From a virus (taxonomy: Duplodnaviria; Caudoviricetes), in the IMG/VR virus record IMGVR_UViG_3300038345_000087, positions 32,001-96,000 of that record: DNA of 64,000 nt; one strand, 5' to 3'. A program made the position numbers and the translations under genes. The notes under the pieces were generated by a model that was not told where the DNA came from, ran no database searches, and saw only the letters and a program-made list of their open reading frames with translations. Below are positions 2,254 to 36,769 of the stretch, in pieces. Each line of letters begins with the position of its first letter. The stretch's first letter is position 1.

Positions 2254-5200
2254 ATGATATACGACCCATTCATCGACGAATTGGCGGCACTTCCGCTGAC
2301 TCTCCTTGTTTCTCCAGCTGACCAACAGACGGAGGAGGGACAAACGGCGTGTTGGTGCCCATTCTGCAAGGCTCCATCGGACACACCGCATTTCATCATA
2401 TACCAACATCGGCGCGGTGGTCTTTATGGTCGCCCCGTCGAGAAATGGATGTGTACCAAAACGCATCGCTCTGGCTATGGGGCAATAGAATTATATGCAG
2501 CCATTCATGGATATGGGTACTGGTGGAAGAAAGACAGTTATGCGCCATCAACATTTATATGTTCTGGTGAAGATCTGCGTCGAACATGTCTTGAGTTGGC
2601 AGAGAAAGCAGGGCATACTCGCGATGAAATAACGGAGAAATGGCCCGCTCTATGCAGACGTGATTACCGTGAAGTGGCTGTTAGACCACAAGAGGCTTTG
2701 ACGTTTGAGCCAAAGACAGATTTCACTCCGCAAGATTTGGCCGCGCTTGGATGTACGACGTGGCTTTCTAAGGATGGAGTGGAACAATATGGTTTTGACA
2801 CACAGAACAAAGAATCGGCATGGCATTTTCATCCTTCACAACTGCAAAAGGATTTCCATGTCTATGCCGTTGCTCGCGTCACACTGCCCGCTGTCTCTCG
2901 TCAGGGTACGGAACAGTCTGAAGTCTTGGTGAGCACGCCTTGGAATCCTATCTTCGTCTGTCTTGCTGATGACGAAAAAGAGGATTGCGGTTCAGTATTT
3001 TTCCCTGCGAATGACAACATTCATCCGATGGTATTCTCCACTACCGACGAACATACACCGGCTAAAGTGTCACGGTGGTTGGCAGGAGATCGCACGTTTA
3101 CACGAGCTGTGGAATTGCGTACCAGCGATAACACTGGCGTACATGCGGCCATTAAAGAGGTGGATGCGTCTGAGGATTATGTAACGGAAAAACAAGTGTG
3201 GAGTGAAGAAACTACGGAAAGTGGTAAGACGAAGGCGGAACAGGTGACGATGGAAATAAAGGAAAAGGATATCCGCGCTAAGGCTATCGTATATTGTACG
3301 TCTGCTCAGGATGCTATTAGTACTTATTATCACCTCAAAGCTCTTCGCCACACCTATCCGACTCAGTTTGGATCACGTTGGTTCCACGTCTGTTTCCCGT
3401 ATGGTGATGTGCCATTTTCTCCTGTTCATTACAATAAGATGCACCGATTCGCGGATAGTATCTATACCCTATTCCCTTCCACAACCAAGGCCCTCTTGCG
3501 TGCTCGCGATATCAGTTGTCGCTATCGTGACATCCTTCGCGCAGAATTGCCTCCATCTATTCAGGACCGCGCACACCTCTTCTTTGCACGTCTTTTCTGT
3601 CGCCCTGTTAGTTCTCCACGTGATTTCTTCCTGGCCTACGACATGCTTCCACGTGAAGCATCGCAGTATGATGGTGACATCAATCGCCTCTTCTCCTCTT
3701 GTGTTACTTCGGCTCTCTGCTCAGATCCTTTTGAGCGTAAGGAGAAACGCGACAAGAATGGTGTAGTGAAGGAGGTCTTTTATACTATCAATCCAGCGAC
3801 ATTATGGGAGTTTATGGCTTCGGCTGGTTACGCCCGCGATGTTCGTCCCGACGAACCTGATAAAATTGGCCGTTTCGTTCACATCGATGGTCCATTTGCG
3901 GATGAGCTTGATTCTGCTTCGATGGTACAGGCAACTATCGAGAAACTGAAGGAGTATGCTCGTCAGGTGAACGATGAACGATGCACACCCGATGAATATG
4001 AAAAAATGGTGCAAGCGGTTCTGCGTGCCAATAAGGAAATCAACGAAAAGACAATAGCATCCCTGCCATCCGTTAAGTTGAACTATACGGGTGGTTATGG
4101 CCGGCACATCGATCATTTCTTCTACGAAAACGGTGTCCTTCGCATTACTGACACGGAAATATCACTTCATTCTTACGATGATATTGATTTCAATGTTGAA
4201 CGATCTGAGTTGTTGCATTGGAATATAACTCCATACAAGAATCTCCCATTTGAGATTTCTGAGAATCCTGAATATCGCAAACGTCTTGAAGCCATCCAAC
4301 AGAAACGAAACGAGAAGGATGACCTTGGTAAACCGCTTTACACACTCCAGCAGCTTGCGACACAAGAGAATGAATTGGCATTGTGGGCACAGTCACATAG
4401 GTGGATTGTGGACTGGCACGGTAAGGCTGAAAACGAATTGTGGCCACCGCTTCGTGTTATCCGTGGATTTGCTAACGAGGAATGGGAACGTGAACAGGAA
4501 CTTTTGCATGATGGCCGTCAATTCTCTTCTGAGGAACAGATGGAACTTGACTGTCGTTTTGCCAATCTCATTTTTTGCCTTGGTCGTATGCTTTGGAGGT
4601 ATCGTGATAGCAAGTCAAACTGTATCAGTTATCTTATAGAGAATGTTGTAAGTGCTGCTAATCGCGCAGAAGGTGGTTCGGGTAAATCGACCTTCGTTCG
4701 TGTGTTCGCTGGTTGTGCTGCTCACATCTTGAATGTAAACGGGCGCGACTTGATTACATCCAAGGAGTTTTCTGCGAATCTTGCGGAATATCAGCATCAC
4801 AAACACCGAATAGTGCATTGGGAGGATGTGGATGCTTCTCTTGATTTTGGAAAACTATACAACTTGACCACGGGCGATTTCTCTGTTCGTTACATGTATA
4901 AGGATAGAATTACTATCCCGCTATCGGAGGGACCTGGCCATGTGGTGACTTCTAACTACCCGCTTCACGACCTCGATGACTCTACTATGCGTCGTGTTTG
5001 TCTTGGTGGTTTTTCACATCGCTTTTGTGGCCAAAACATTATGAAGAATAAGGCTGCCCGCTATATTAGCGATATTATGCCTGACTTCAATGCTGTATCT
5101 CCCGAAAAGTTATCTGCGGCATCACGTAATCAGATAGCCATGATTTGCGCCCTCGCGGTGCAGTTTGTCATGCGCTATGATGAAAAAGTGGATGCACAGA

Positions 5201-5922: not shown

Positions 5923-6522
5923 ATGGCTCGTTATCGAAATTCACAAGACCTTGGCGTGTTCATCGGAGCACGTTTTATCGCGCCTACCTTTGAGGAGGGC
6001 GGTAAACCTATCCGTGGAATTTTTATTCCAGTGGATATTAACGGTATTGAAGTGCAACAGGATAGCCGTGAGGAGGGTAAACGCAACGCCTCTGGCATTC
6101 GTGCATTTATTAACACACAGCAACGTAGTTGTAACCCGAAGTACATCGAAGCTGTGAAGCAGTCTCTTCAACGTAAGGGAGAGGAAATAACACTTTATAA
6201 TGTGCCGGCTTATCAGGTATGTTATACGTTGCCAGAAGAGAAACGCGCACGCATTCGTGCCTCTCTTGCAAAGCGTTTGATTGCACAGCATCCCGAATGG
6301 GCGAACCAGACGGACACGCAAGGTACAGAGTTGGCTCGCGCAATCTCGATGATGATGCCCTTCCAGATGGGCGACTCCTACTTGATGGAGGACAACAACA
6401 ATGCGGCTCCCCGCAATTCTTCTGCTCCTATTGCTCAGGGTGTTGCTGGTTATACGGCACAACAGGCCGACCCGTTTGACCAGGATGCCTTTGCTTCCGA
6501 TGATTCTGATTTGCCATTCTAA
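5923..6522 (+). CDS. SSB-like protein
   Basis: Lies between the helicase and the clamp; flexible tail ending DDSDLPF, like SSB C-termini. Confidence 0.5.
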   Translation: MARYRNSQDLGVFIGARFIAPTFEEGGKPIRGIFIPVDINGIEVQQDSREEGKRNASGIRAFINTQQRSCNPKYIEAVKQSLQRKGEEITLYNVPAYQVCYTLPEEKRARIRASLAKRLIAQHPEWANQTDTQGTELARAISMMMPFQMGDSYLMEDNNNAAPRNSSAPIAQGVAGYTAQQADPFDQDAFASDDSDLPF

Positions 6523-6533
6523 ATTCTTGATAT

Positions 6534-7673
6534 ATGAAATACAGTATTTCATCCCGCGAACTCCGCTCTGTGTTGGATGCGGTTCGTAAAGTAATTTTGA
6601 AGCGAAACACGCTTCCAGTGCTTGATAATGCTCTTATCTCTTATCGCGATGAGCGTTTCTTCGTTACGGGTTCATCCGTAGAAAACACGCTGACGATGCC
6701 TATTGACTTGCGTCCGCTGGATAAGGACCCGTTCGTCCCCTTCTGCATCGATGTGACAAACCTCACGGCGATTCTTGCTACACTGCCAGAACAGCCCATT
6801 GAACTGTCGGTGAACCCTGACACCTTCTTAACGACATTGAAATATCAGGGTGGAGAGTTCAACATCCCCGCCTATGACGGAAAGGAGTACCCGCTGCCGA
6901 AACCTATCACTCAGGTGGCAGTGGCATTCTCTGCTCCTACGAACATTCTTCTGCCGGCTATGAGATCGGCATTGAATGTGACTTCAGAGGATGAACTGCG
7001 TCCTCAGATGTCGGCTGTGGCTTTGGATGTATCTTCAGAAGGTATCACATTCGTTGGTACGAATGGTAAGATGCTGTATAAGTATGAATGGACGCATGGT
7101 ATGCCTTTCCTGACTGAAGGCCAACCGGCCATTGTTCTCTTCCCGCGTACTGTAATCAATGCGATGGATGCTCCTTTCTCTAAGGTGGAGGAGATTTCTG
7201 TTCGCTCAGATGGCCGTCAAGTAGAGGTGACGGCTGGCGATGTGTCCTTCTCCATCCGTTCCGTGGAAGGGCGTTATCCGAATTATAACAGCGTCATCCC
7301 GAAGGATAACCCTTACCATGTCACGTTGCCTGTGAAGGATCTGATGAACACCATTCGTCGTGTTTCGATGGTGGCTTCAGACAACTCAAAGTTGATTGCA
7401 CTGCGCCGCACAGACCTTTTCCTTCAAATGACTGCGGATGATGTTGACTTCTCTCGTTCTGCTCACGAGGAGTTGTCAATGGATGACTGCACGCTTCCAG
7501 AAGGCTTTGCCATCGGTCTCAACTATCCATGTTTGCTGACCCTTCTCTCGGCTATCTCTACGGAAAAAGTGCGTATTGAACTGTCTGCTCCAGAACGTCC
7601 TCTTATCTTGAAGGAGGATGCCAACAACTCTACCCTTCTTGAACTGCTGATGCCGATGGCTCTCAACACATGA
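6534..7673 (+). CDS. dnaN: DNA polymerase III beta sliding clamp
   Basis: 379 aa; KRNTLPVLDN, DELRPQM, GTNGKML, EGRYPNYNSVIP and LLMPM match the DnaN pattern. Confidence 0.9.
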   Translation: MKYSISSRELRSVLDAVRKVILKRNTLPVLDNALISYRDERFFVTGSSVENTLTMPIDLRPLDKDPFVPFCIDVTNLTAILATLPEQPIELSVNPDTFLTTLKYQGGEFNIPAYDGKEYPLPKPITQVAVAFSAPTNILLPAMRSALNVTSEDELRPQMSAVALDVSSEGITFVGTNGKMLYKYEWTHGMPFLTEGQPAIVLFPRTVINAMDAPFSKVEEISVRSDGRQVEVTAGDVSFSIRSVEGRYPNYNSVIPKDNPYHVTLPVKDLMNTIRRVSMVASDNSKLIALRRTDLFLQMTADDVDFSRSAHEELSMDDCTLPEGFAIGLNYPCLLTLLSAISTEKVRIELSAPERPLILKEDANNSTLLELLMPMALNT

Positions 7674-7679
7674 GAGACC

Positions 7680-7775
7680 ATGCCTGATAGTGCGCCCGCT
7701 GGTTCATCTGGCGGGTGCCTTTCAGTCTCATTGGATTCTTCACCACCATTAGTGCTGATTGAATATGAATTGTAA
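7680..7775 (+). CDS. 31-aa remnant TRD-type mini-ORF (ends PPLVLIEYEL)
   Basis: Translated manually. Shares the C-terminal tail of the downstream cassettes; the body is mostly a hairpin repeat. Confidence 0.3.
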   Translation: MPDSAPAGSSGGCLSVSLDSSPPLVLIEYEL

Positions 7776-8076
7776 ACTGGCAAAATTCTATGAATACGGC
7801 TCTACCTCATATTATGTGACAGGTGATGGTAGGGTGTTGAGTACACGGAATCCTGACCTCCCAATGGATTCTTGGCACGAGATAGCATCTTTCAACGGTA
7901 AGGGCTATCGTCGTGTGCGCATCCAGCGAAAGAACTTCAAGGTGCATCGTTTGGTGGCTGAAGCCTTTGTGCCAAACCCCGACAATCTCCCTCATGTTCT
8001 TCATATAGATGGCGACCGCTGTAATAATCATTATACAAATCTCGAATGGTCCGCGTCCCAATCCAATCACCAATAA
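7765..8076 (+). CDS. HNH endonuclease (NUMOD4/HNH_3-like)
   Basis: VHRLVAEAFVPNPDNLPHVLHIDGDRCNNHYTNLEW. Confidence 0.85.
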   Translation: MNCKLAKFYEYGSTSYYVTGDGRVLSTRNPDLPMDSWHEIASFNGKGYRRVRIQRKNFKVHRLVAEAFVPNPDNLPHVLHIDGDRCNNHYTNLEWSASQSNHQ

Positions 8077-8207
8077 TCCTTGGCTACTATTCTCCTTCGC
8101 AGAATGGTGTTGTGGTCTCTCCATACGGTATCGCGTTATGCCTTGCAGGGGGGGGTAAAGGACATGATACGGACAAACCTAAAATTCTCATAGAGTATGA
8201 TGTGTAA
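8046..8207 (+). CDS. Stand-alone MTase TRD-like cassette 1 (53 aa; G8 in frame)
   Basis: MVRVPIQSPIILGYYSPSQNGVVVSPYGIALCLAGGGKGHDTDKPKILIEYDV; G8 at 8148-8155. Confidence 0.65.
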   Translation: MVRVPIQSPIILGYYSPSQNGVVVSPYGIALCLAGGGKGHDTDKPKILIEYDV

Positions 8208-8346
8208 TGGTGTGGTCATTCTGGTGCTCGGTTCACTCCAGCCGCACGCAGCTGTGGTCAACGTAGTAGGGGGGGGTAATTTCATCCCTTGCTTAGGAAC
8301 AACAGATTTCGGACTTCCAAAATTGGTGATAGAATATGATGTTTAG
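8197..8346 (+). CDS. TRD-like cassette 2 (49 aa; G8 in frame)
   Basis: MMCNGVVILVLGSLQPHAAVVNVVGGGNFIPCLGTTDFGLPKLVIEYDV; G8 at 8269-8276. Confidence 0.55.
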   Translation: MMCNGVVILVLGSLQPHAAVVNVVGGGNFIPCLGTTDFGLPKLVIEYDV

Positions 8347-8526
8347 TATAACGAATATAGGCGCATTCCGCGTAACGAGGGGGGGGGGCAAATCTGTCCT
8401 ATCAATGTCACGCTTGATGGCTGTGCTGCTACCATCACTACACGTTATGGCGCAATGGACTATTCCAACATCATCAGTTTCGGCCATTTTCCTATGACGG
8501 CTTGTTTATTGGAGTATGATTTATAA
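8336..8526 (+). pseudogene. TRD-like cassette 3, frameshifted at G10 (putative phase-OFF)
   Basis: ATG at 8336. After G10 (8379-8388) the frame QICPINVTLDGCAATITTRYGAMDYSNIISFGHFPMTACLLEYDL is out of frame with the ATG; G8 or G11 would restore it. Paralogous to cassette 7. Confidence 0.6.
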
Positions 8527-8687
8527 GATAATAGGTTGGTCCCGCGATGCAGTAGGCAGGGTGGTATGTTATCACTTAAAGGACATCTGCAACACACTTA
8601 CCACCTTTGTAGGGGGGTAAATTTAAGGACTCAAAAACAGACCTCGGCAATACTACGCCTTATGTCTTTATAGAATATGAATTGTAA
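8516..8687 (+). pseudogene. TRD-like cassette 4, truncated at G6 (putative phase-OFF)
   Basis: MIYKIIGWSRDAVGRVVCYHLKDICNTLTTFVGG* stops right after G6 (8612-8617). G5 or G8 would continue into GKFKDSKTDLGNTTPYVFIEYEL. Confidence 0.65.
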
Positions 8688-8940
8688 AAAAAGTATGTTG
8701 ATAAAATCTATTAGATATATAGGATTCCTGAGACCTGACGTGAGTTGTGGCACTGGTTATTCAGAACCCGATAAGTTCCATGTGGTTTATGATACAGGGT
8801 TGGAAACTGATGTGTGGGTTGATATTTGGAATCTTCCAGAGGAATGTGTACGTAGTGCTTTTTTAGAGGATTGTATGATGCTTTTCATTCGCTACCCAAT
8901 AATCTTGATGAAGCATTTGAAATGTATAAGCAAGCAATAA
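8677..8940 (+). CDS. hypothetical protein
   Basis: 87-aa ORF coupled to cassette 4 through the same GAATATGA junction; no TRD-like tail. Confidence 0.5.
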   Translation: MNCKKSMLIKSIRYIGFLRPDVSCGTGYSEPDKFHVVYDTGLETDVWVDIWNLPEECVRSAFLEDCMMLFIRYPIILMKHLKCISKQ

Positions 8941-9001
8941 TTCCAACAGGACGTTGCCCACATTTTTGGCTTAATGAACGTAAAAAACAATAATATATAA
9001 T

Positions 9002-10252
9002 ATGATAGCTAAAATTTATCCAGACAATCATCCAGATTTGGCGGGCAAGCGTGACCCGTCACATCCAGTCCGTTACTTCGATATCCGTAAACTGACAGAA
9101 GGTGAATGCCTCCGTTTGATGGATGTTCCTGAACCTGACATCATCAAACTTTGTAATGCAACAAAGGGCAAGGCGGGGCGCATCAAAGAAAACGAACCCG
9201 CTTATGGTGAAGCAGGACATGGGAAAGGCTCTCCTGTGCTTTCTCGTTCTGCTATCTATAAACTTGCAGGAAACAGTATTGTTGTTTCATGCTTACGTCA
9301 TATCTTCAAGAATATCTATTTGACAGAGGATGATCCTAATGACGCTTTTGAATTGTTCCCTGAACCGACATTCCGTGCCCCTATTCCTTCTACCATTCGT
9401 CTTGTTACACTTTGCTCAGGTTATGACTCACAAGCCATCGCCCTTCAGCAAGTGGTAGATGAGATAAACCAGGGGGGGCAAATCAACGGTTCCGTATGTT
9501 GCGATGGTATCGCAACCCAATTAGATTTGCTTGCTTGGGCTGAATACGACCCAGATCGTCCGAAAATACCACTTGAAAGACAACCCGCCGTAGTTGCACA
9601 TAATATCCTTTTTCCCCAATATGCGGATCGTAACCTCGGCGATATGACAAAGATTGATTGGCCTTCCGTCTATGAGGAGTGGAAGGCGAAAGGAATCTCC
9701 GAAATCGATATTCTTACTTATTCTACGCCATGCCAAAGTATTTCTCAGGCTAGTAAAAGAGCCGGCATAAAGAAAGGTTCTGGCACCCGATCTTCTATAC
9801 TATGGTACACAGAGAATGCCATCCGTACACTCCGACCTAAATTTCTTCTTCAAGAAAATGTCCGCGCTCTGGTGAATGAGGTGAACATTGATGATTTCCG
9901 TGAGTGGCAACAAGTCTGTACTGATTGTGGATATGACAACTATTGGGCCATACTGAATGCAAAGGATTTTGGCGTACCGCAAAACCGTGAGCGTGTGTTC
10001 ATGCTTTCCGTCAGAAAGGATTTGAACCTACCCATATATCGTTTTCCTAAACCTTTCCGCCTCTTGAAGTGTATTGCAGACATCCTTGATGAGGATGTAC
10101 CAGAGAGTTATTTCTTGAAGCCGGATAGTGTTATCAAGTTCTTTCAGACCAATGAAGCAGATAAGAATGCGGCCATCTGTTATGCTTATACAGACCACAA
10201 ACTTTCTAATGAGGAAATCGCACGCATTCGTAAAGAGAATGGGGTGGGGTAA
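9002..10252 (+). CDS. Circularly permuted DNA (cytosine-5) methyltransferase lacking a TRD
   Basis: Motif order is IX (IRKLTEGECLRLM), X (YKLAGNSIVV), I (LVTLCSGYDSQ), IV (STPCQSIS), VI (QENV), VIII (PQNRERVF); the protein ends soon after. Internal in-frame G7 at 9472-9478. Confidence 0.85.
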   Translation: MIAKIYPDNHPDLAGKRDPSHPVRYFDIRKLTEGECLRLMDVPEPDIIKLCNATKGKAGRIKENEPAYGEAGHGKGSPVLSRSAIYKLAGNSIVVSCLRHIFKNIYLTEDDPNDAFELFPEPTFRAPIPSTIRLVTLCSGYDSQAIALQQVVDEINQGGQINGSVCCDGIATQLDLLAWAEYDPDRPKIPLERQPAVVAHNILFPQYADRNLGDMTKIDWPSVYEEWKAKGISEIDILTYSTPCQSISQASKRAGIKKGSGTRSSILWYTENAIRTLRPKFLLQENVRALVNEVNIDDFREWQQVCTDCGYDNYWAILNAKDFGVPQNRERVFMLSVRKDLNLPIYRFPKPFRLLKCIADILDEDVPESYFLKPDSVIKFFQTNEADKNAAICYAYTDHKLSNEEIARIRKENGVG

Positions 10253-10553
10253 TGAAAAAGATGCTGATAAAAGATACCGAACCGTCCGAAGATATGGCTC
10301 GCATCCGTATTTCGGCAAGCCGTGGCAGGGGGGGCAATCTATGACTTACCTCTATGACCGTTCGCCAAAAGATGATACTGCACCTGTTCGTGTGGCTTCA
10401 TCTGTTAATCGTGACCTTGATGACCTTTCTTTTCGTGGTGCTCATGCGACAAGGAACTTCCATCAAGTCATAGAACTTGGCTCTTCTCGGTTCACCAACA
10501 CTATCACTTCTGTTCTAAAAGACAATCTCGTATGGATAGAGTGTTTTCCGTAA
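10252..10553 (+). pseudogene. TRD-like cassette 5, frameshifted at G7 from the coupled ATG (putative phase-OFF)
   Basis: The ATG overlaps the MTase stop (TAATG): MKKMLIKDTEPSEDMARIRISASRGRGGNL*. G8 instead of G7 (10328-10334) would join it to ...FHQVIELGSSRFTNTITSVLKDNLVWIECFP. An alternative ATG at 10239 is already in the downstream frame. Confidence 0.55.
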
Positions 10554-10675
10554 GTTTGATTCGTTATCCACATGGTAAGTTTCGTGGTGGTCATTATCAT
10601 GTTCATGCTTTTCCTCCATTAACGACCTCTTGCTTCCAAAACAATAACTTTCTACTTATTGAATATGATTCCTAA
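10532..10675 (+). CDS. TRD-like cassette 6 (47 aa; no G tract)
   Basis: MDRVFSVSLIRYPHGKFRGGHYHVHAFPPLTTSCFQNNNFLLIEYDS. Confidence 0.6.
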   Translation: MDRVFSVSLIRYPHGKFRGGHYHVHAFPPLTTSCFQNNNFLLIEYDS

Positions 10676-10901
10676 TAGCCGCCCTGCATGTTGCGATTCT
10701 ATCGAAACTCTCTCATTGACCATTACTACCTCCGCACCTCCTAAACGTATTCCAGGGGGGGCACTTCTTCCTGTAAATACAACAGCCGACGGGCTGGCTT
10801 GCACTCTCAACACTCGTTACGAGGCTATGGCTCTTCCGCTCGACATCCTTTCCCTGGCTCATTACCCCAAGACAGTTATTTTGATAGAGTGGTTCCTATA
10901 A
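10665..10901 (+). CDS. TRD-like cassette 7 (G7 in frame)
   Basis: ...RIPGGALLPVNTTADGLACTLNTRYEAMALPLDILSLAHYPKTVILIEWFL; G7 at 10755-10761. Confidence 0.6.
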   Translation: MIPNSRPACCDSIETLSLTITTSAPPKRIPGGALLPVNTTADGLACTLNTRYEAMALPLDILSLAHYPKTVILIEWFL

Positions 10902-11014
10902 TGACCATCAACTCTTCACAAGATGGCATCGTGGTTTCTCCTTGGGGCATTTCTCCTACACACACAGCCGGTCATGGTAATATGCCCAAGGTAATAGTAG
11001 AATACGACTTGTAA
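10901..11014 (+). CDS. TRD-like cassette 8 (37 aa; no G tract)
   Basis: MTINSSQDGIVVSPWGISPTHTAGHGNMPKVIVEYDL; paralogous to cassette 1. Confidence 0.65.
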   Translation: MTINSSQDGIVVSPWGISPTHTAGHGNMPKVIVEYDL

Positions 11015-11025
11015 AGCCACTGTTT

Positions 11026-11052
11026 CCGATGGATCTCCATCGGGTCTTTTTT
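11026..11052 (+). terminator. Intrinsic terminator ending the replication/methylase operon
   Basis: Hairpin CCGATGG-ATCT-CCATCGG followed by a T tract. Confidence 0.7.
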
Positions 11053-11095
11053 GTCGTTTTTGTATGCAGCATGGTTTGCCCATGCTGTTTTTCAT

Positions 11096-28012: not shown

Positions 28013-28208
28013 ATGTAAATGCTGCATTTGTGGTAACGCGGCTGTGGCGTTTTGGCCGAATATCGACCCCGACATTCCATCACATCCGTATTGCCGCAAA
28101 TGCCTCGATGAGCAACAAATCCAGATGCTTACAGCTACATTTTGCGAAGGTGACGAAAAAGCAGCTCGCGCAATGCACAAAGCCTTACAAAAAGACAAAC
28201 AACGATAA
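27981..28208 (+). CDS. Small zinc-finger protein
   Basis: CCIC...CRKC. Confidence 0.5.
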   Translation: MSKRLILKASECKCCICGNAAVAFWPNIDPDIPSHPYCRKCLDEQQIQMLTATFCEGDEKAARAMHKALQKDKQR

Positions 28209-29071
28209 TGACTGTTATTAAGACTACAACACCCATCGCACGCAATGATTACACTTGTGATCTGTGCCATCAACAAATTCCGCATGGCACACGATATAAG
28301 TGTGTTATTCTGCGTGCAGATGGCCGTCTCGTAACTCAGCACGTTCATCAGACATGTCCTGCCACGGTGTCAGAAGCATCATCTTCTGGTGTCGTTTCTA
28401 ATAATCCGCGTCAAACAGCTCCTCTGTTTATCCAGGGGGGGCATACTCCAGAAGATATTTTTCGCCAACAAATACACGCAGACGTTCAGGCACGCCTCCA
28501 TAAGTTTACCCGTGAGGAGAACTTACTGATAGCGTATGCGCCACTGGTTATTACTGAACTCTCTTGGAGGTTCGCTTTTAAGACTGTTGAATTGGCAGCT
28601 CACTATCGTATCTCTGAATTGAAAAAACTGTCACGTACCGTCAAGATGATGTTCGAGAAACAGAGGGGGCAATATCTTAAAGACCTCAAACCGTCACATA
28701 TCAAGCAAATAGAGACACAGACGGACAGATTCATGCAACTGTCATCCTCAGATCTTACCATCCTATATTTCTCTATCAATAACGAACTTAAAAAGAAGTT
28801 TCCAGATCTCTCTTACCTCGATCTGAGAACGGAGGCATGTCGAGCGATGGTGATGCTGAAGTTTCATAAAGAACATCAGAGAAAAATGGATGCGCTCATT
28901 AAGGAGCGTATGGGATATGTCAATCACTATGCAACACCCATACATGATGCTCTTTATGATGCAATGGATGCCTACGCCGATCCTGCTACTGTTGATTTCT
29001 CTGGCCATGTGGCCACATCTATGAAAATCTTACAGAAAAATATAGGTCAAATGGACTTTAAGACGTTCTGA
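28208..29071 (+). CDS. hypothetical protein (N-terminal Zn-binding motif; internal G7)
   Basis: CDLC...HxxC; in-frame G7 at 28435-28441. Confidence 0.55.
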   Translation: MTVIKTTTPIARNDYTCDLCHQQIPHGTRYKCVILRADGRLVTQHVHQTCPATVSEASSSGVVSNNPRQTAPLFIQGGHTPEDIFRQQIHADVQARLHKFTREENLLIAYAPLVITELSWRFAFKTVELAAHYRISELKKLSRTVKMMFEKQRGQYLKDLKPSHIKQIETQTDRFMQLSSSDLTILYFSINNELKKKFPDLSYLDLRTEACRAMVMLKFHKEHQRKMDALIKERMGYVNHYATPIHDALYDAMDAYADPATVDFSGHVATSMKILQKNIGQMDFKTF

Positions 29072-31737: not shown

Positions 31738-32566
31738 AGAATATCAAGTAATGAATAGATATATTTGTCGTGCAAAGGCCGTTGAAGATGGCCGTTGGGT
31801 ACAGGGTGAGCCACATACTATGTCCTCACATCCGCACATACATATTTCTGCATTGGAATCTGTTAGAATCAATCCCAATACACTTGGAAGGTTTACGGGC
31901 TGGCGTGATAAGAACGGTAATCCCATTTTTGAGGATGATATTCTGGCATTGACTATTCCTGATGGTACTACTCGACTATTCATTGTAGAGTGGCAACGTC
32001 AGGTAAGACATTTGAAGTCTCTGAAAGATTTTGTTCCAGATGGCAATCCAGTAGAGGTTAGTGGATGGTGCTTTACTTGGGGGCAAAACTGTCTATTACC
32101 ATCGGTTATAGGACATGTGCCAGACTATTATCGTATGGAAATTGTCGGAAATGTATATGACAATATAGATCTGCTTGAACCTGGTGCTGAAGAACAGTTC
32201 AAAAGCCATCGTGAACTAATCGGTAATACTTGCTGTCTGTCAAACAAACCAGGTGTGCAAGTGTTTATGTATGATCTAAAGAATGATAATGGCAGTTGGT
32301 TGGCTCGCTGTTTCCTTACTTCTGATGGCGTTTATATGTCCTACTCTGAATGGGGAAATTTCTTCCATTACTTTAATGCACCTGGTAAGGATGGTATTCG
32401 TAAGTTTATGCTTGGTATTAGCGAAGGCTACTTTGCCAACAAACTCTGTGAGGTGGAATGGAATACAGCACCGACCAAAGTAGCCGCTGCTGCAAAACGT
32501 CATGCAAAGCATGTCTTGCCAGTACTTCAGCAGACTATTCGTGAACAGTTGGAAAAGGAGGGGTAG
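31727..32566 (+). CDS. YopX-domain protein with extra C-terminal domain
   Basis: GRFTGWRDKNGNPIFEDDI ... EIVGNVYDN. Confidence 0.7.
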   Translation: MIIKEYQVMNRYICRAKAVEDGRWVQGEPHTMSSHPHIHISALESVRINPNTLGRFTGWRDKNGNPIFEDDILALTIPDGTTRLFIVEWQRQVRHLKSLKDFVPDGNPVEVSGWCFTWGQNCLLPSVIGHVPDYYRMEIVGNVYDNIDLLEPGAEEQFKSHRELIGNTCCLSNKPGVQVFMYDLKNDNGSWLARCFLTSDGVYMSYSEWGNFFHYFNAPGKDGIRKFMLGISEGYFANKLCEVEWNTAPTKVAAAAKRHAKHVLPVLQQTIREQLEKEG

Positions 32567-36174: not shown

Positions 36175-36218
36175 TTAGTGTGCTCGGTGGTTTCCTCACC
36201 GAGAAAAATCCAAACGAT

Positions 36219-36769
36219 ATGAATAAATCCCCAATGCCTTCCATCCTTGATGCCTGTTGTGGCGGTAAGATGTTCTGGTTTGATAAGAATGACCCTCGTG
36301 TTCTCTTTCAGGACATCCGTTGCATAGAAACGACTCTCAAAGATCGTGATAAGCTACGACATTTTTCGGTTAAGCCGGATGTGATGGCTGATTTCACCTC
36401 TATGCCTTACCCAGACAATAGTTTTCGCATGGTTGTATTTGACCCACCACATTTGAAATATACTGGATCCAAGAAAGAACCTCAGAACTGGCAGATGAAA
36501 AAGTATGGATGGCTGCCCGCTCATGGATGGCAGGACATCATTCGCAAGGGGTTCTCGGAGTGCTTTCGTGTTCTTATGCCTGGTGGGTTTCTTATCTTCA
36601 AATGGAACGAAACAGACATACGTGTATCGGAAATTCTGAAACTTACCCCCCCACTACTCCACCTCTTTTCGGGCATATCTCTGGCAAACGGGCTAATACC
36701 CATTGGATATGTTTTATGAAAGAGGATGACGAACCAATTAACGCTGTGTTTCCAGATATAAAGCAATAG
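36219..36769 (+). pseudogene. SAM-dependent (amino-type DNA) methyltransferase frameshifted at C7
   Basis: ILDACCGGKMFWFDK, VVFDPPH, LIFKWNE. The expected tail PLFGHISGKRANTHWICFMK is in another frame after C7 (36646-36652). Confidence 0.75.

Follow-up and report, generated by a model that had tools for sequence, protein, structure and literature searches.

A circularly permuted phage C5-methyltransferase without a target recognition domain, flanked by candidate recognition cassettes with frame-setting poly-G tracts

The window analyzed here is a stretch of 64,000 nucleotides (nt) from the genome of a tailed rumen phage (Duplodnaviria; Caudoviricetes), namely positions 32,001 to 96,000 of the IMG/VR record IMGVR_UViG_3300038345_000087. 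Between positions 7680 and 11014, the plus strand of the window carries a gene for the 416-amino-acid (aa) core of a cytosine C5-methyltransferase (C5-MTase), eight small open reading frames (ORFs) and one remnant. The small ORFs, mini-genes that flank the core gene and lie on the same strand, are denoted cassettes 1 to 8, and the remnant is denoted cassette 0; an initial annotation of this DNA had listed these ORFs with their C-terminal tails, and all of them were found where it had placed them. The cassettes appear to be separately encoded target recognition domains (TRDs), most of which, along with the core, contain a poly-G tract that would switch the respective reading frame on or off. 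The core and the cassettes are as follows (ON and OFF denote the in-frame and out-of-frame states in the window).

9002-10252, plus strand: C5-MTase core, circularly permuted and without a TRD core, 416 aa; identified by Pfam and by alignment with M.HhaI.
7680-7775, plus strand: cassette 0, a remnant of 31 aa that ends in the shared tail and lacks a G tract; identified as an ORF with the tail.
8046-8207, plus strand: cassette 1, 53 aa, ON, G8 at 8148-8155; ORF with the tail.
8197-8346, plus strand: cassette 2, 49 aa, ON, G8 at 8269-8276; ORF with the tail.
8336-8526, plus strand: cassette 3, OFF, G10 at 8379-8388, ON at tract lengths 8 or 11; two frames that meet at the tract.
8516-8687, plus strand: cassette 4, OFF, G6 at 8612-8617, ON at tract length 8; two frames that meet at the tract.
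10252-10344, plus strand: leader ORF of cassette 5, 30 aa, G7 at 10328-10334; conserved in 11 loci.
10341-10553, plus strand: cassette 5b, a complete TRD of 70 aa whose core is NTITS and whose tail is aberrant; identified by hhalign, BLASTP and alignment A3.
10532-10675, plus strand: cassette 6, 47 aa, no G tract, fixed ON; relatives in 8 loci.
10665-10901, plus strand: cassette 7, 78 aa, ON, G7 at 10755-10761; ORF and profile.
10901-11014, plus strand: cassette 8, 37 aa, no G tract, fixed ON; relatives in 17 loci.

Cassettes 6 and 8 are classified as fixed ON because they lack a G tract. For three of the small ORFs, the gene structure differs from that initially proposed. The ORFs at 8336 and 8516 had been described as bearing tails; the tails are indeed present, but in both cassettes 3 and 4 the leader and the tail-bearing part are in different frames, with the junction located exactly at the poly-G tract, where a G8 would join them. 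Similarly, the ORF at 10252, originally counted as a cassette, encodes only the 30-aa leader, and its stop codon overlaps (ATGA) the start at 10341 of the ORF that encodes the complete 70-aa TRD (10341-10553). The same leader/TRD arrangement is found in L013, one of the related loci. A frame-0 ATG at 10239 was considered as the start of cassette 5 and dropped, given that the frame-1 leader is the conserved one (11 loci). Of the two pairs of cassettes that had been proposed to be paralogous, 3 and 7 are clearly so, with 44% identity (alignment A2), and 1 and 8 look related by eye. Relatives of cassette 2 are present in 7 loci, and both the leader and the TRD part of cassette 3 are conserved in relatives. 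Cassette 0, the remnant at 7680, has no relative in any of the related loci retrieved and may be non-functional.

The core is the product of the only PF00145 gene in the genome. Its match to this family (E = 8e-41) covers profile positions 54-216 only, and its alignment with M.HhaI consists of two blocks, in which M.HhaI residues 65-201 (motifs IV-VIII) correspond to core residues 228-367, and M.HhaI residues 294-318 (motif X) correspond to core residues 81-105. Because of the placement of these two blocks, the order of the motifs in the core is IX-X-I...VIII. Beyond the last aligned residue (367), past motif VIII, just 49 residues remain, so that the TRD core is absent; at the N-terminus, about 27 residues precede motif IX, with no TRD among them. 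Both blocks (I-VIII and IX-X) thus belong to one polypeptide, in which the C5-MTase signature is recognizable in motifs I, IV (PCQ), VI (ENV), VIII (QNRER), IX and X, the motif strings being invariant in alignment A1. The Pfam match and the M.HhaI alignment together uphold the original proposal of a permuted, TRD-less methyltransferase. Among the related loci, the core genes of L007, L009 and L011-L015 contain a C8-C10 tract inside motif IX (in the T-P-P-E codons, at about position 4095), which is in frame in L014 and out of frame in L013 and L009; the same loci (about 4100-4500) encode an acidic, helical insertion of 100-150 aa between motifs IX and X that is absent in the window core.

The products of the small ORFs share a C-terminal tail made of hydrophobic residues and then E-Y-D/E. 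When the pattern is defined strictly, as three hydrophobic residues, then E, Y/W/F and D/E, with a stop codon no more than 2 codons further on, the 106,650-bp genome contains 8 instances of it in its six frames; 7 of these are in the locus and the remaining one ends a remote cassette described below, so the common tail noticed in the initial annotation is far beyond chance expectation. The ATG of the next unit lies within the last codons of each tail (a GAATATGA-type junction), and the tails also share DNA strings. At the tails of cassettes 0, 1, 2 and 4, stop codons close all three frames within about 20 nt, and the reading frame is therefore reset at these four points. Each cassette is accordingly arranged like, and predicted to be, an insulated translational unit of its own.

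Comparison with C5-MTases of standard organization indicates that the cassettes are TRD modules, and these are under purifying selection. The profile of cassette 5b aligns with residues 229-272 of 349-aa relatives with the normal motif order, that is, with the stretch that separates motif VIII from motif IX (hhalign probability 91%, E = 1.2e-6), and BLASTP of 5b against full-length relatives yields E = 0.002. The normal-order relatives, in turn, match M.MpeI (4dkj) with E = 2e-31, in an alignment that places the NTITS core on the TL motif and the tail on the strand just before motif IX. Among the 30 named Atlas neighbors of cassette 1, 28 are PF00145 clusters. A search of 1.84 billion representatives with the profile for the cassette 3/7 type matched 123 clusters, 109 of which consist of proteins of at most 126 aa; among the best 50 clusters, 49 consist of proteins of at most 98 aa. 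Modules of the same types are also found in three long PF00145 proteins (P0065, P0072 and P0082), where they form a tandem within a single chain and precede motif IX, each apparently ending, as judged by eye, in a short hydrophobic-E strand; a further protein, P0096, has no Pfam match and shows the same tandem layout by eye. The ratio of nonsynonymous to synonymous substitution rates (dN/dS) is in the range of 0.11 to 0.20 for seven cassette types, including pairs with one or both copies OFF, these values being approximate because dS is often saturated. The mini-ORFs, which had been proposed to be TRDs from inspection of the sequence, align with the variable region of C5-MTases, on the TL motif of M.MpeI and with modules present in cis, and are conserved as separate ORFs in many related phages; given this homology and this conservation, they are not devoid of similarity to TRDs and are most unlikely to be decay fragments, two of the outcomes that the initial annotation had named as contrary to its own proposal.

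Other searches and structure predictions were less informative. A profile search of the PDB with alignment A2 (the 3/7 type) returned a chance match only, a word-based search for longer proteins containing cassette 1 yielded only proteins of 96-144 aa, and an Atlas search with cassette 7 gave no usable neighbor. The AlphaFold2 model of cassette 7 alone has a mean predicted local distance difference test score (pLDDT) of 48 and shows no confident fold; the module may fold only on its partner. For the natural cis fusion in L014, the mean pLDDT is 77 but only 37-62 in the TRD part; in this model, with its low-confidence TRD part, short strands are formed by the tail, the first residues of the core and the stretch that enters motif IX.

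The locus is further characterized by poly-G tracts, which the initial annotation overlooked; neither this regulatory layer nor the cis-fused relatives described below entered its interpretation. Of the eight runs of at least six G in the 64-kb window, seven are located within this 3.3 kb, all on the coding strand and ranging from G6 to G10, one each in cassettes 1, 2, 3, 4, 5 and 7 and in the core (G7 at 9472-9478). Five of the modules and the core are in or out of frame according to the length of their tract. For comparison among strains, nine further assemblies (L082-L090), from different samples, were found by their exact match to the HNH endonuclease protein encoded next to cassette 0; they are 97-99% identical over the region. 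The tract lengths below were read from the assembled contigs, one length per strain, and are given in the order window, L082, L083, L084, L085, L086, L087, L088, L089, L090.

Cassette 1: 8, 8, 8, 9, 7, 8, 7, 8, 7, 7
Cassette 2: 8, 8, 9, 8, 8, 7, 7, 7, 8, 9
Cassette 3: 10, 7, 6, 7, 8, 7, 7, 7, 7, 7
Cassette 4: 6, 8, 10, 7, 9, 8, 7, 7, 8, not read
Core: 7, 7, 9, 7, 8, 7, 7, 7, 7, 9

On direct translation, the ten strains show ten distinct on/off patterns. The G8 tract of L085 creates a 62-aa ON form of cassette 3, a 57-aa ON form of cassette 4 is encoded in L082, L086, L089 and L090, and a G8 in the cassette 5 leader of L085 gives rise to a fused product of 100 aa. The tract of the core is G7 in seven strains, G8 in one and G9 in two, and in the three strains with G8 or G9 the core gene is split into two ORFs; we infer that this tract could serve as a master switch for the whole enzyme. 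Over 2.65 kb compared in the nine strains, 40 of the 41 insertion or deletion events (indels) fall in homopolymers, with 23-70 substitutions per strain over the same segment. In Logan contigs from three further runs, indels occur at the tracts alone, as +G, -3/-4 G, +GG or +T, the +GG at the cassette 4 tract being present in X2, X3 and X8. The same kind of variation is seen among more distant loci: L013 and L014, which are 97% identical, differ in eight G/C tracts, and a cassette that they share is ON in only one of them. The spectrum of G runs in 30 related split loci (G5, 44; G6, 8; G7, 43; G8, 37; G9, 29; G10, 8) is depleted at G6, and runs of G7 or longer number 118 in 244 kb of split loci vs 3 in 436 kb of relatives with a TRD in cis. 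Of the 55 cassettes that were parsed, 28 are in frame and 27 are OFF, and a change of one or two G in a single tract restores the frame in all 27 of the latter. A frame-changing homopolymer within an ORF and length polymorphism among near-identical genomes are both found here, as in simple sequence repeat (SSR) contingency loci, and the overall tract pattern is, in comparative terms, the signature of such loci.

These data bear directly on the possibility that the mini-ORFs are decaying fragments of a multispecific gene and that the differences in the tracts are sequencing or assembly errors. The array does have an eroded look, with cassette 0 lacking relatives and the tail of cassette 5 aberrant, and homopolymers are error-prone in some sequencing chemistries. 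On the other side are the dN/dS values of 0.1-0.2, the restriction of lesions to the tracts, the range of tract lengths from 6 to 10 across independent assemblies, the strong over-representation of long G runs next to the depletion of G6, and the conservation of the layout in dozens of phages. We consider this explanation scarcely credible and already largely refuted.

The strains differ in more than tract length. Compared to window positions 10252-10790, six of the nine (L083, L084, L086, L087, L089 and L090, at about 6470-7400) have a different downstream array while being 98% identical upstream, so the cassette content is polymorphic; these six contain two extra downstream cassettes, one of the 5a type, which overlaps the 3' end of the core gene, and the other of a type that L011 and L014 have as a cis fusion with the core.

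Related cores in many IMG/VR contigs, from gut and rumen phages, are surrounded by cassettes of the same types, and the layout is present in dozens of IMG/VR contigs as well as in contigs that were binned with metagenome-assembled genomes (MAGs) of Bacteroidales and Clostridia. Within this set, single cassette types are fused in cis to the permuted core in L001-L005, L011, L014 and L016: in L001-L005 it is the N-terminal part of the cassette 4 type, and in L011 and L014 the upstream cassette nearest to the core shares the frame of the core gene. L020, L029 and L030 represent a split form with the normal motif order, in which a core with motifs I-VIII is followed by a cassette array and then by a last ORF that contains a TRD together with motifs IX-X. 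The tail and the core N-terminus covary by clade, E-Y-D/E tails being combined with the conserved 27-residue N-terminus and Y-E tails with a short one (L017 and L023). Because tandem-TRD proteins, cis fusions and normal-order split loci all exist, the array is best seen, at the level of sequence comparison, as a multispecific enzyme that has been split into separate, individually switched ORFs.

The existence of covalently linked forms raises the question of whether the cassettes act only when covalently joined, with slippage of RNA polymerase or ribosome, or frameshifting at the stop/start junctions, producing long tandem-TRD chains linked to the core. Single-chain proteins with the same modules in tandem, the in-frame last upstream cassette of L011 and L014, and the G8 in L085 that fuses the cassette 5 leader to its TRD are all compatible with such a mechanism. 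However, four tails (cassettes 0, 1, 2 and 4) combine three-frame stops within about 20 nt with a dedicated ATG, the window has an unrelated 99-aa ORF between the upstream cassettes and the core, and a remote cassette encoded on the opposite strand (see below) could not be joined in this way; we therefore regard obligatory covalent linkage as improbable. Another possibility is that the array serves chiefly to store silent modules, which are recombined into cis beside the core, as in the case of pilin or hsdS cassettes. The differences in cassette content between 98%-identical strains (with two extra downstream cassettes in 6 of 9), the cis-fused forms in relatives and the DNA strings shared by the tails would all be expected of such a store. 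It fits less well that the window and the close strains contain no cis expression site, that each cassette has its own start and five have a frame switch of their own, neither of which a silent copy needs, that no recombinase gene is present in the locus, and that purifying selection extends over leaders and tails. A predominantly silent store thus seems a rather poor explanation, and somewhat less likely than obligatory covalent linkage.

The remote cassette is located on the minus strand at 9657-9950 of L171, about 10.1 kb before the start of the window, and hence about 18 kb from the sole C5-MTase core and on the opposite strand. Its leader is conserved, its G9 tract is off by one and its tail ends in the shared motif; it belongs to a type that occurs inside the arrays of L007, L011 and L013. 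The presence of this cassette along with a single C5 core in the genome is indirect support for action in trans. The joint change of tail motif and core N-terminus between clades and the well-documented fragment complementation of C5-MTases point, indirectly, the same way. The remote cassette follows an adenine-MTase-like gene, amid other DNA-modification genes, and this location, far from the core and among adenine methyltransferase genes, might be taken to suggest that the cassette proteins have another role, such as modulation of host methyltransferases or restriction enzymes. In the loci examined, however, cassettes always accompany a TRD-less or split C5 core, relatives whose core has a TRD in cis have neither cassettes nor G tracts, and the tail motif and the core N-terminus change together between clades, which makes a role of this kind very unlikely.

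The surroundings of the remote cassette form a second DNA-modification cluster (genome positions 19.7-25.2 kb; L171:7726-13244, minus strand), 6.8-12.3 kb before the window start, with radical-SAM-like, Dam, MazG, PAPS-reductase-like and N6/N4 methyltransferase genes. Six coding-strand tracts of G8-G9 are found there within 4 kb, and 12 of the 15 runs of at least seven G or C in the genome fall within the two modification clusters, this one and the locus studied here.

Taken as a whole, the locus would be a multispecific C5-MTase that has been broken up into trans-acting TRD subunits, each under its own phase switch, an interpretation that we consider fairly probable on the strength of the sequence comparisons. 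The fuller version of this model has free, interchangeable recognition subunits of about 40-100 aa that dock via a short C-terminal strand and are, in most cases and together with the core, mutationally switched, giving a methylome that is combinatorial, reversible and heritable, with up to 2^n patterns per operon; toward this we lean only slightly. Through slipped-strand mispairing at the tracts, the individual specificities and the enzyme as a whole would be switched on and off independently of one another. Once expressed, a TRD mini-protein would bind the core non-covalently, its C-terminal hydrophobic-E-Y-D/E strand replacing the strand that leads into motif IX of the single-chain enzymes, and each TRD would direct methylation of its own motif. 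Independent switching would then generate many methylation patterns in the phage population, and this diversity could hedge against restriction by rumen hosts, both the methylation-blocked and the methylation-dependent kind, with the master switch and the off states limiting the exposure to methyl-dependent restriction. Because the length of the G runs differs between near-identical phages, the phage population can probably turn each methylation specificity on or off, and would do so to evade host restriction. As for the origin of the layout, the cassettes on both sides of the permuted core may be the remnant of a tandem duplication of a gene with the organization 'core, TRD array, IX-X', followed, as we infer, by fusion of motif X to motif I.

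Several observations weigh against this interpretation. The core is OFF in three of the ten strains, and cassette 3 is OFF in nine of the ten; dS is saturated in many of the pairs from which selection was estimated; searches of Pfam and PHROGs with the cassettes themselves gave no match; and the cis-fused TRDs of relatives show that covalent linkage is also used and is perhaps required.

The putative system resembles several known ones. The multispecific C5-MTases of Bacillus phages (M.SPRI, M.Phi3TI, M.Rho11sI and M.H2I), studied in the Trautner laboratory, contain several TRDs in one chain between motifs VIII and IX. As in the SPR/Phi3T type, several short TRD modules, each expected to read a motif of its own, would serve a single catalytic framework, with eight of them around one core here, and the module types are homologous to those of the uncharacterized single-chain multi-TRD proteins (P0065, P0072, P0082 and P0096). 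Whereas the TRDs of the SPR/Phi3T type adjoin one another within a single polypeptide, without individual regulation, those described here are discontinuous, being separate ORFs with their own starts and stops, five of them with a putative poly-G switch, next to a permuted core.

The likeness to M.BssHII that had been pointed out at the outset holds for the motif order, with motifs IX-X before I-VIII and the permutation point in the variable region, but does not extend to the TRD: the natural permutants M.BssHII, M.Alw26I, M2.Eco31I, M.Esp3I and M2.BsaI keep an N-terminal TRD ahead of motif IX (PMC5944983), whereas the window core has no TRD in cis and the cis form is found only in L001-L005, L011, L014 and L016. 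C5-MTase activity that arises from separate chains is known for M.AquI and from the engineered complementation of fragments of M.SssI and M.HhaI (PMC5944983; PMC3404938; PMC3439449). The resemblance to M.AquI lies in the splitting of the chain in or near the variable region, and in L020, L029 and L030 the two halves of an AquI-like split flank the array. The window core has both blocks, whereas the M.AquI type has motifs I-VIII and IX-X on different polypeptides; the known cases are assembled from two fixed halves with one specificity and have no interchangeable recognition-only subunits. M.EcoHK31I is also a two-polypeptide C5-MTase of this kind.

Methyltransferase genes that are SSR contingency loci include the phasevarions of Haemophilus, Neisseria and Helicobacter and the poly-G genes of Campylobacter (PMC5149525, PMC6321876). 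In these loci, as in the phage locus, coding homopolymer tracts differ in length between close strains, which toggles the reading frame. However, the known loci are bacterial and usually have one tract per mod or hsd gene, whereas here the locus belongs to a phage and has up to a dozen tracts per operon, each predicted to gate a specificity module, plus one in the core. The logic is also similar to that of the HsdS specificity subunits of Type I systems, for which shuffling or phase-variable variants have been described (PMC7672463), in that here too a common methylase would be served by a specificity component that is separate, exchangeable and variable within populations. Nevertheless, HsdS serves amino-methyltransferase complexes, the proteins are unrelated and the variation arises mostly by inversion; no homology of the cassettes to HsdS was found.

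No description of this layout was found in searches of the full-text literature, and the poly-G tracts, the variation among strains, the selection regime, the identity of the cassettes as TRDs and the remote copy are new here. If the modules work in trans, this would be the first C5-MTase with exchangeable specificity subunits and the densest cluster of contingency switches in a phage known to us. It would then account for the ability of gut and rumen phages that have a broad host range or change hosts to withstand highly variable restriction-modification and methyl-dependent restriction systems, would add a source of epigenetic heterogeneity in viral metagenomes, and would supply parts of natural origin, namely a core and recognition modules of about 40-100 aa, for programmable cytosine methylation. 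Annotation is affected as well: gene callers miss or fragment the cassette genes, and assemblies break at the tracts.

Sequences of this kind were found in bovine, sheep and other gut metagenomes from 16 studies; among the sequencing runs listed as carrying the locus, there is no RNA run, and the locus has no blastn match among deposited phage genomes. In binned genomes, the nearest cores belong to Bacteroidales and Prevotella MAGs, at 40-48% identity, which is a weak pointer to these bacteria as the host.

Three further features are located within or next to the array.

7765-8076, plus strand: HNH endonuclease, 103 aa; HNH_3 with E = 4e-9 (Pfam) and PHROG 59 with E = 2e-28.
8677-8993, plus strand: ORFan upstream of the core, frameshifted in the window at T6 (8859-8864); identified by strain comparison.
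11025-11088, plus strand: two terminator-like hairpins, whose stems are at 11025-11044 and 11066-11088, with a T run after each.

The start codon of the HNH endonuclease gene is an ATG within the tail of cassette 0, and the gene is kept upstream of the cassette arrays in L007, L009-L011, L013 and L014; inserted as it is at a cassette junction, this HNH_3 endonuclease could be either a homing element or a part of the system. The ORFan is called as a 99-aa ORF in L082-L087, L089 and L090, where the tract is T7, and Logan contigs of three other strains have +T at its T6 tract; neither Pfam nor PHROGs gave a match for it, and the more distant loci contain no relative. The hairpins are predicted to close the array.

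Among the related loci, L018 (an IMG isolate-genome record; 3836-5124) has no poly-G tract and its core is broken mid-way into two overlapping frames; it may be a decaying prophage copy. Elsewhere in the window, a 287-aa ORF at 28208-29071 on the plus strand, with weak AIPR and ZZ matches only, contains the one other G7 of the window (28435-28441), in the same context (ccaGGGGGGGca) as the cassette tracts. Finally, a small amino-methyltransferase-like gene at 36180-36719, also on the plus strand, encodes a DPPH motif and has weak N6_N4_Mtase and Methyltransf_11 matches in Pfam; near its 3' end, a C7 at 36646-36652, with an overlapping alternative frame that extends to 36769, may be another switch.

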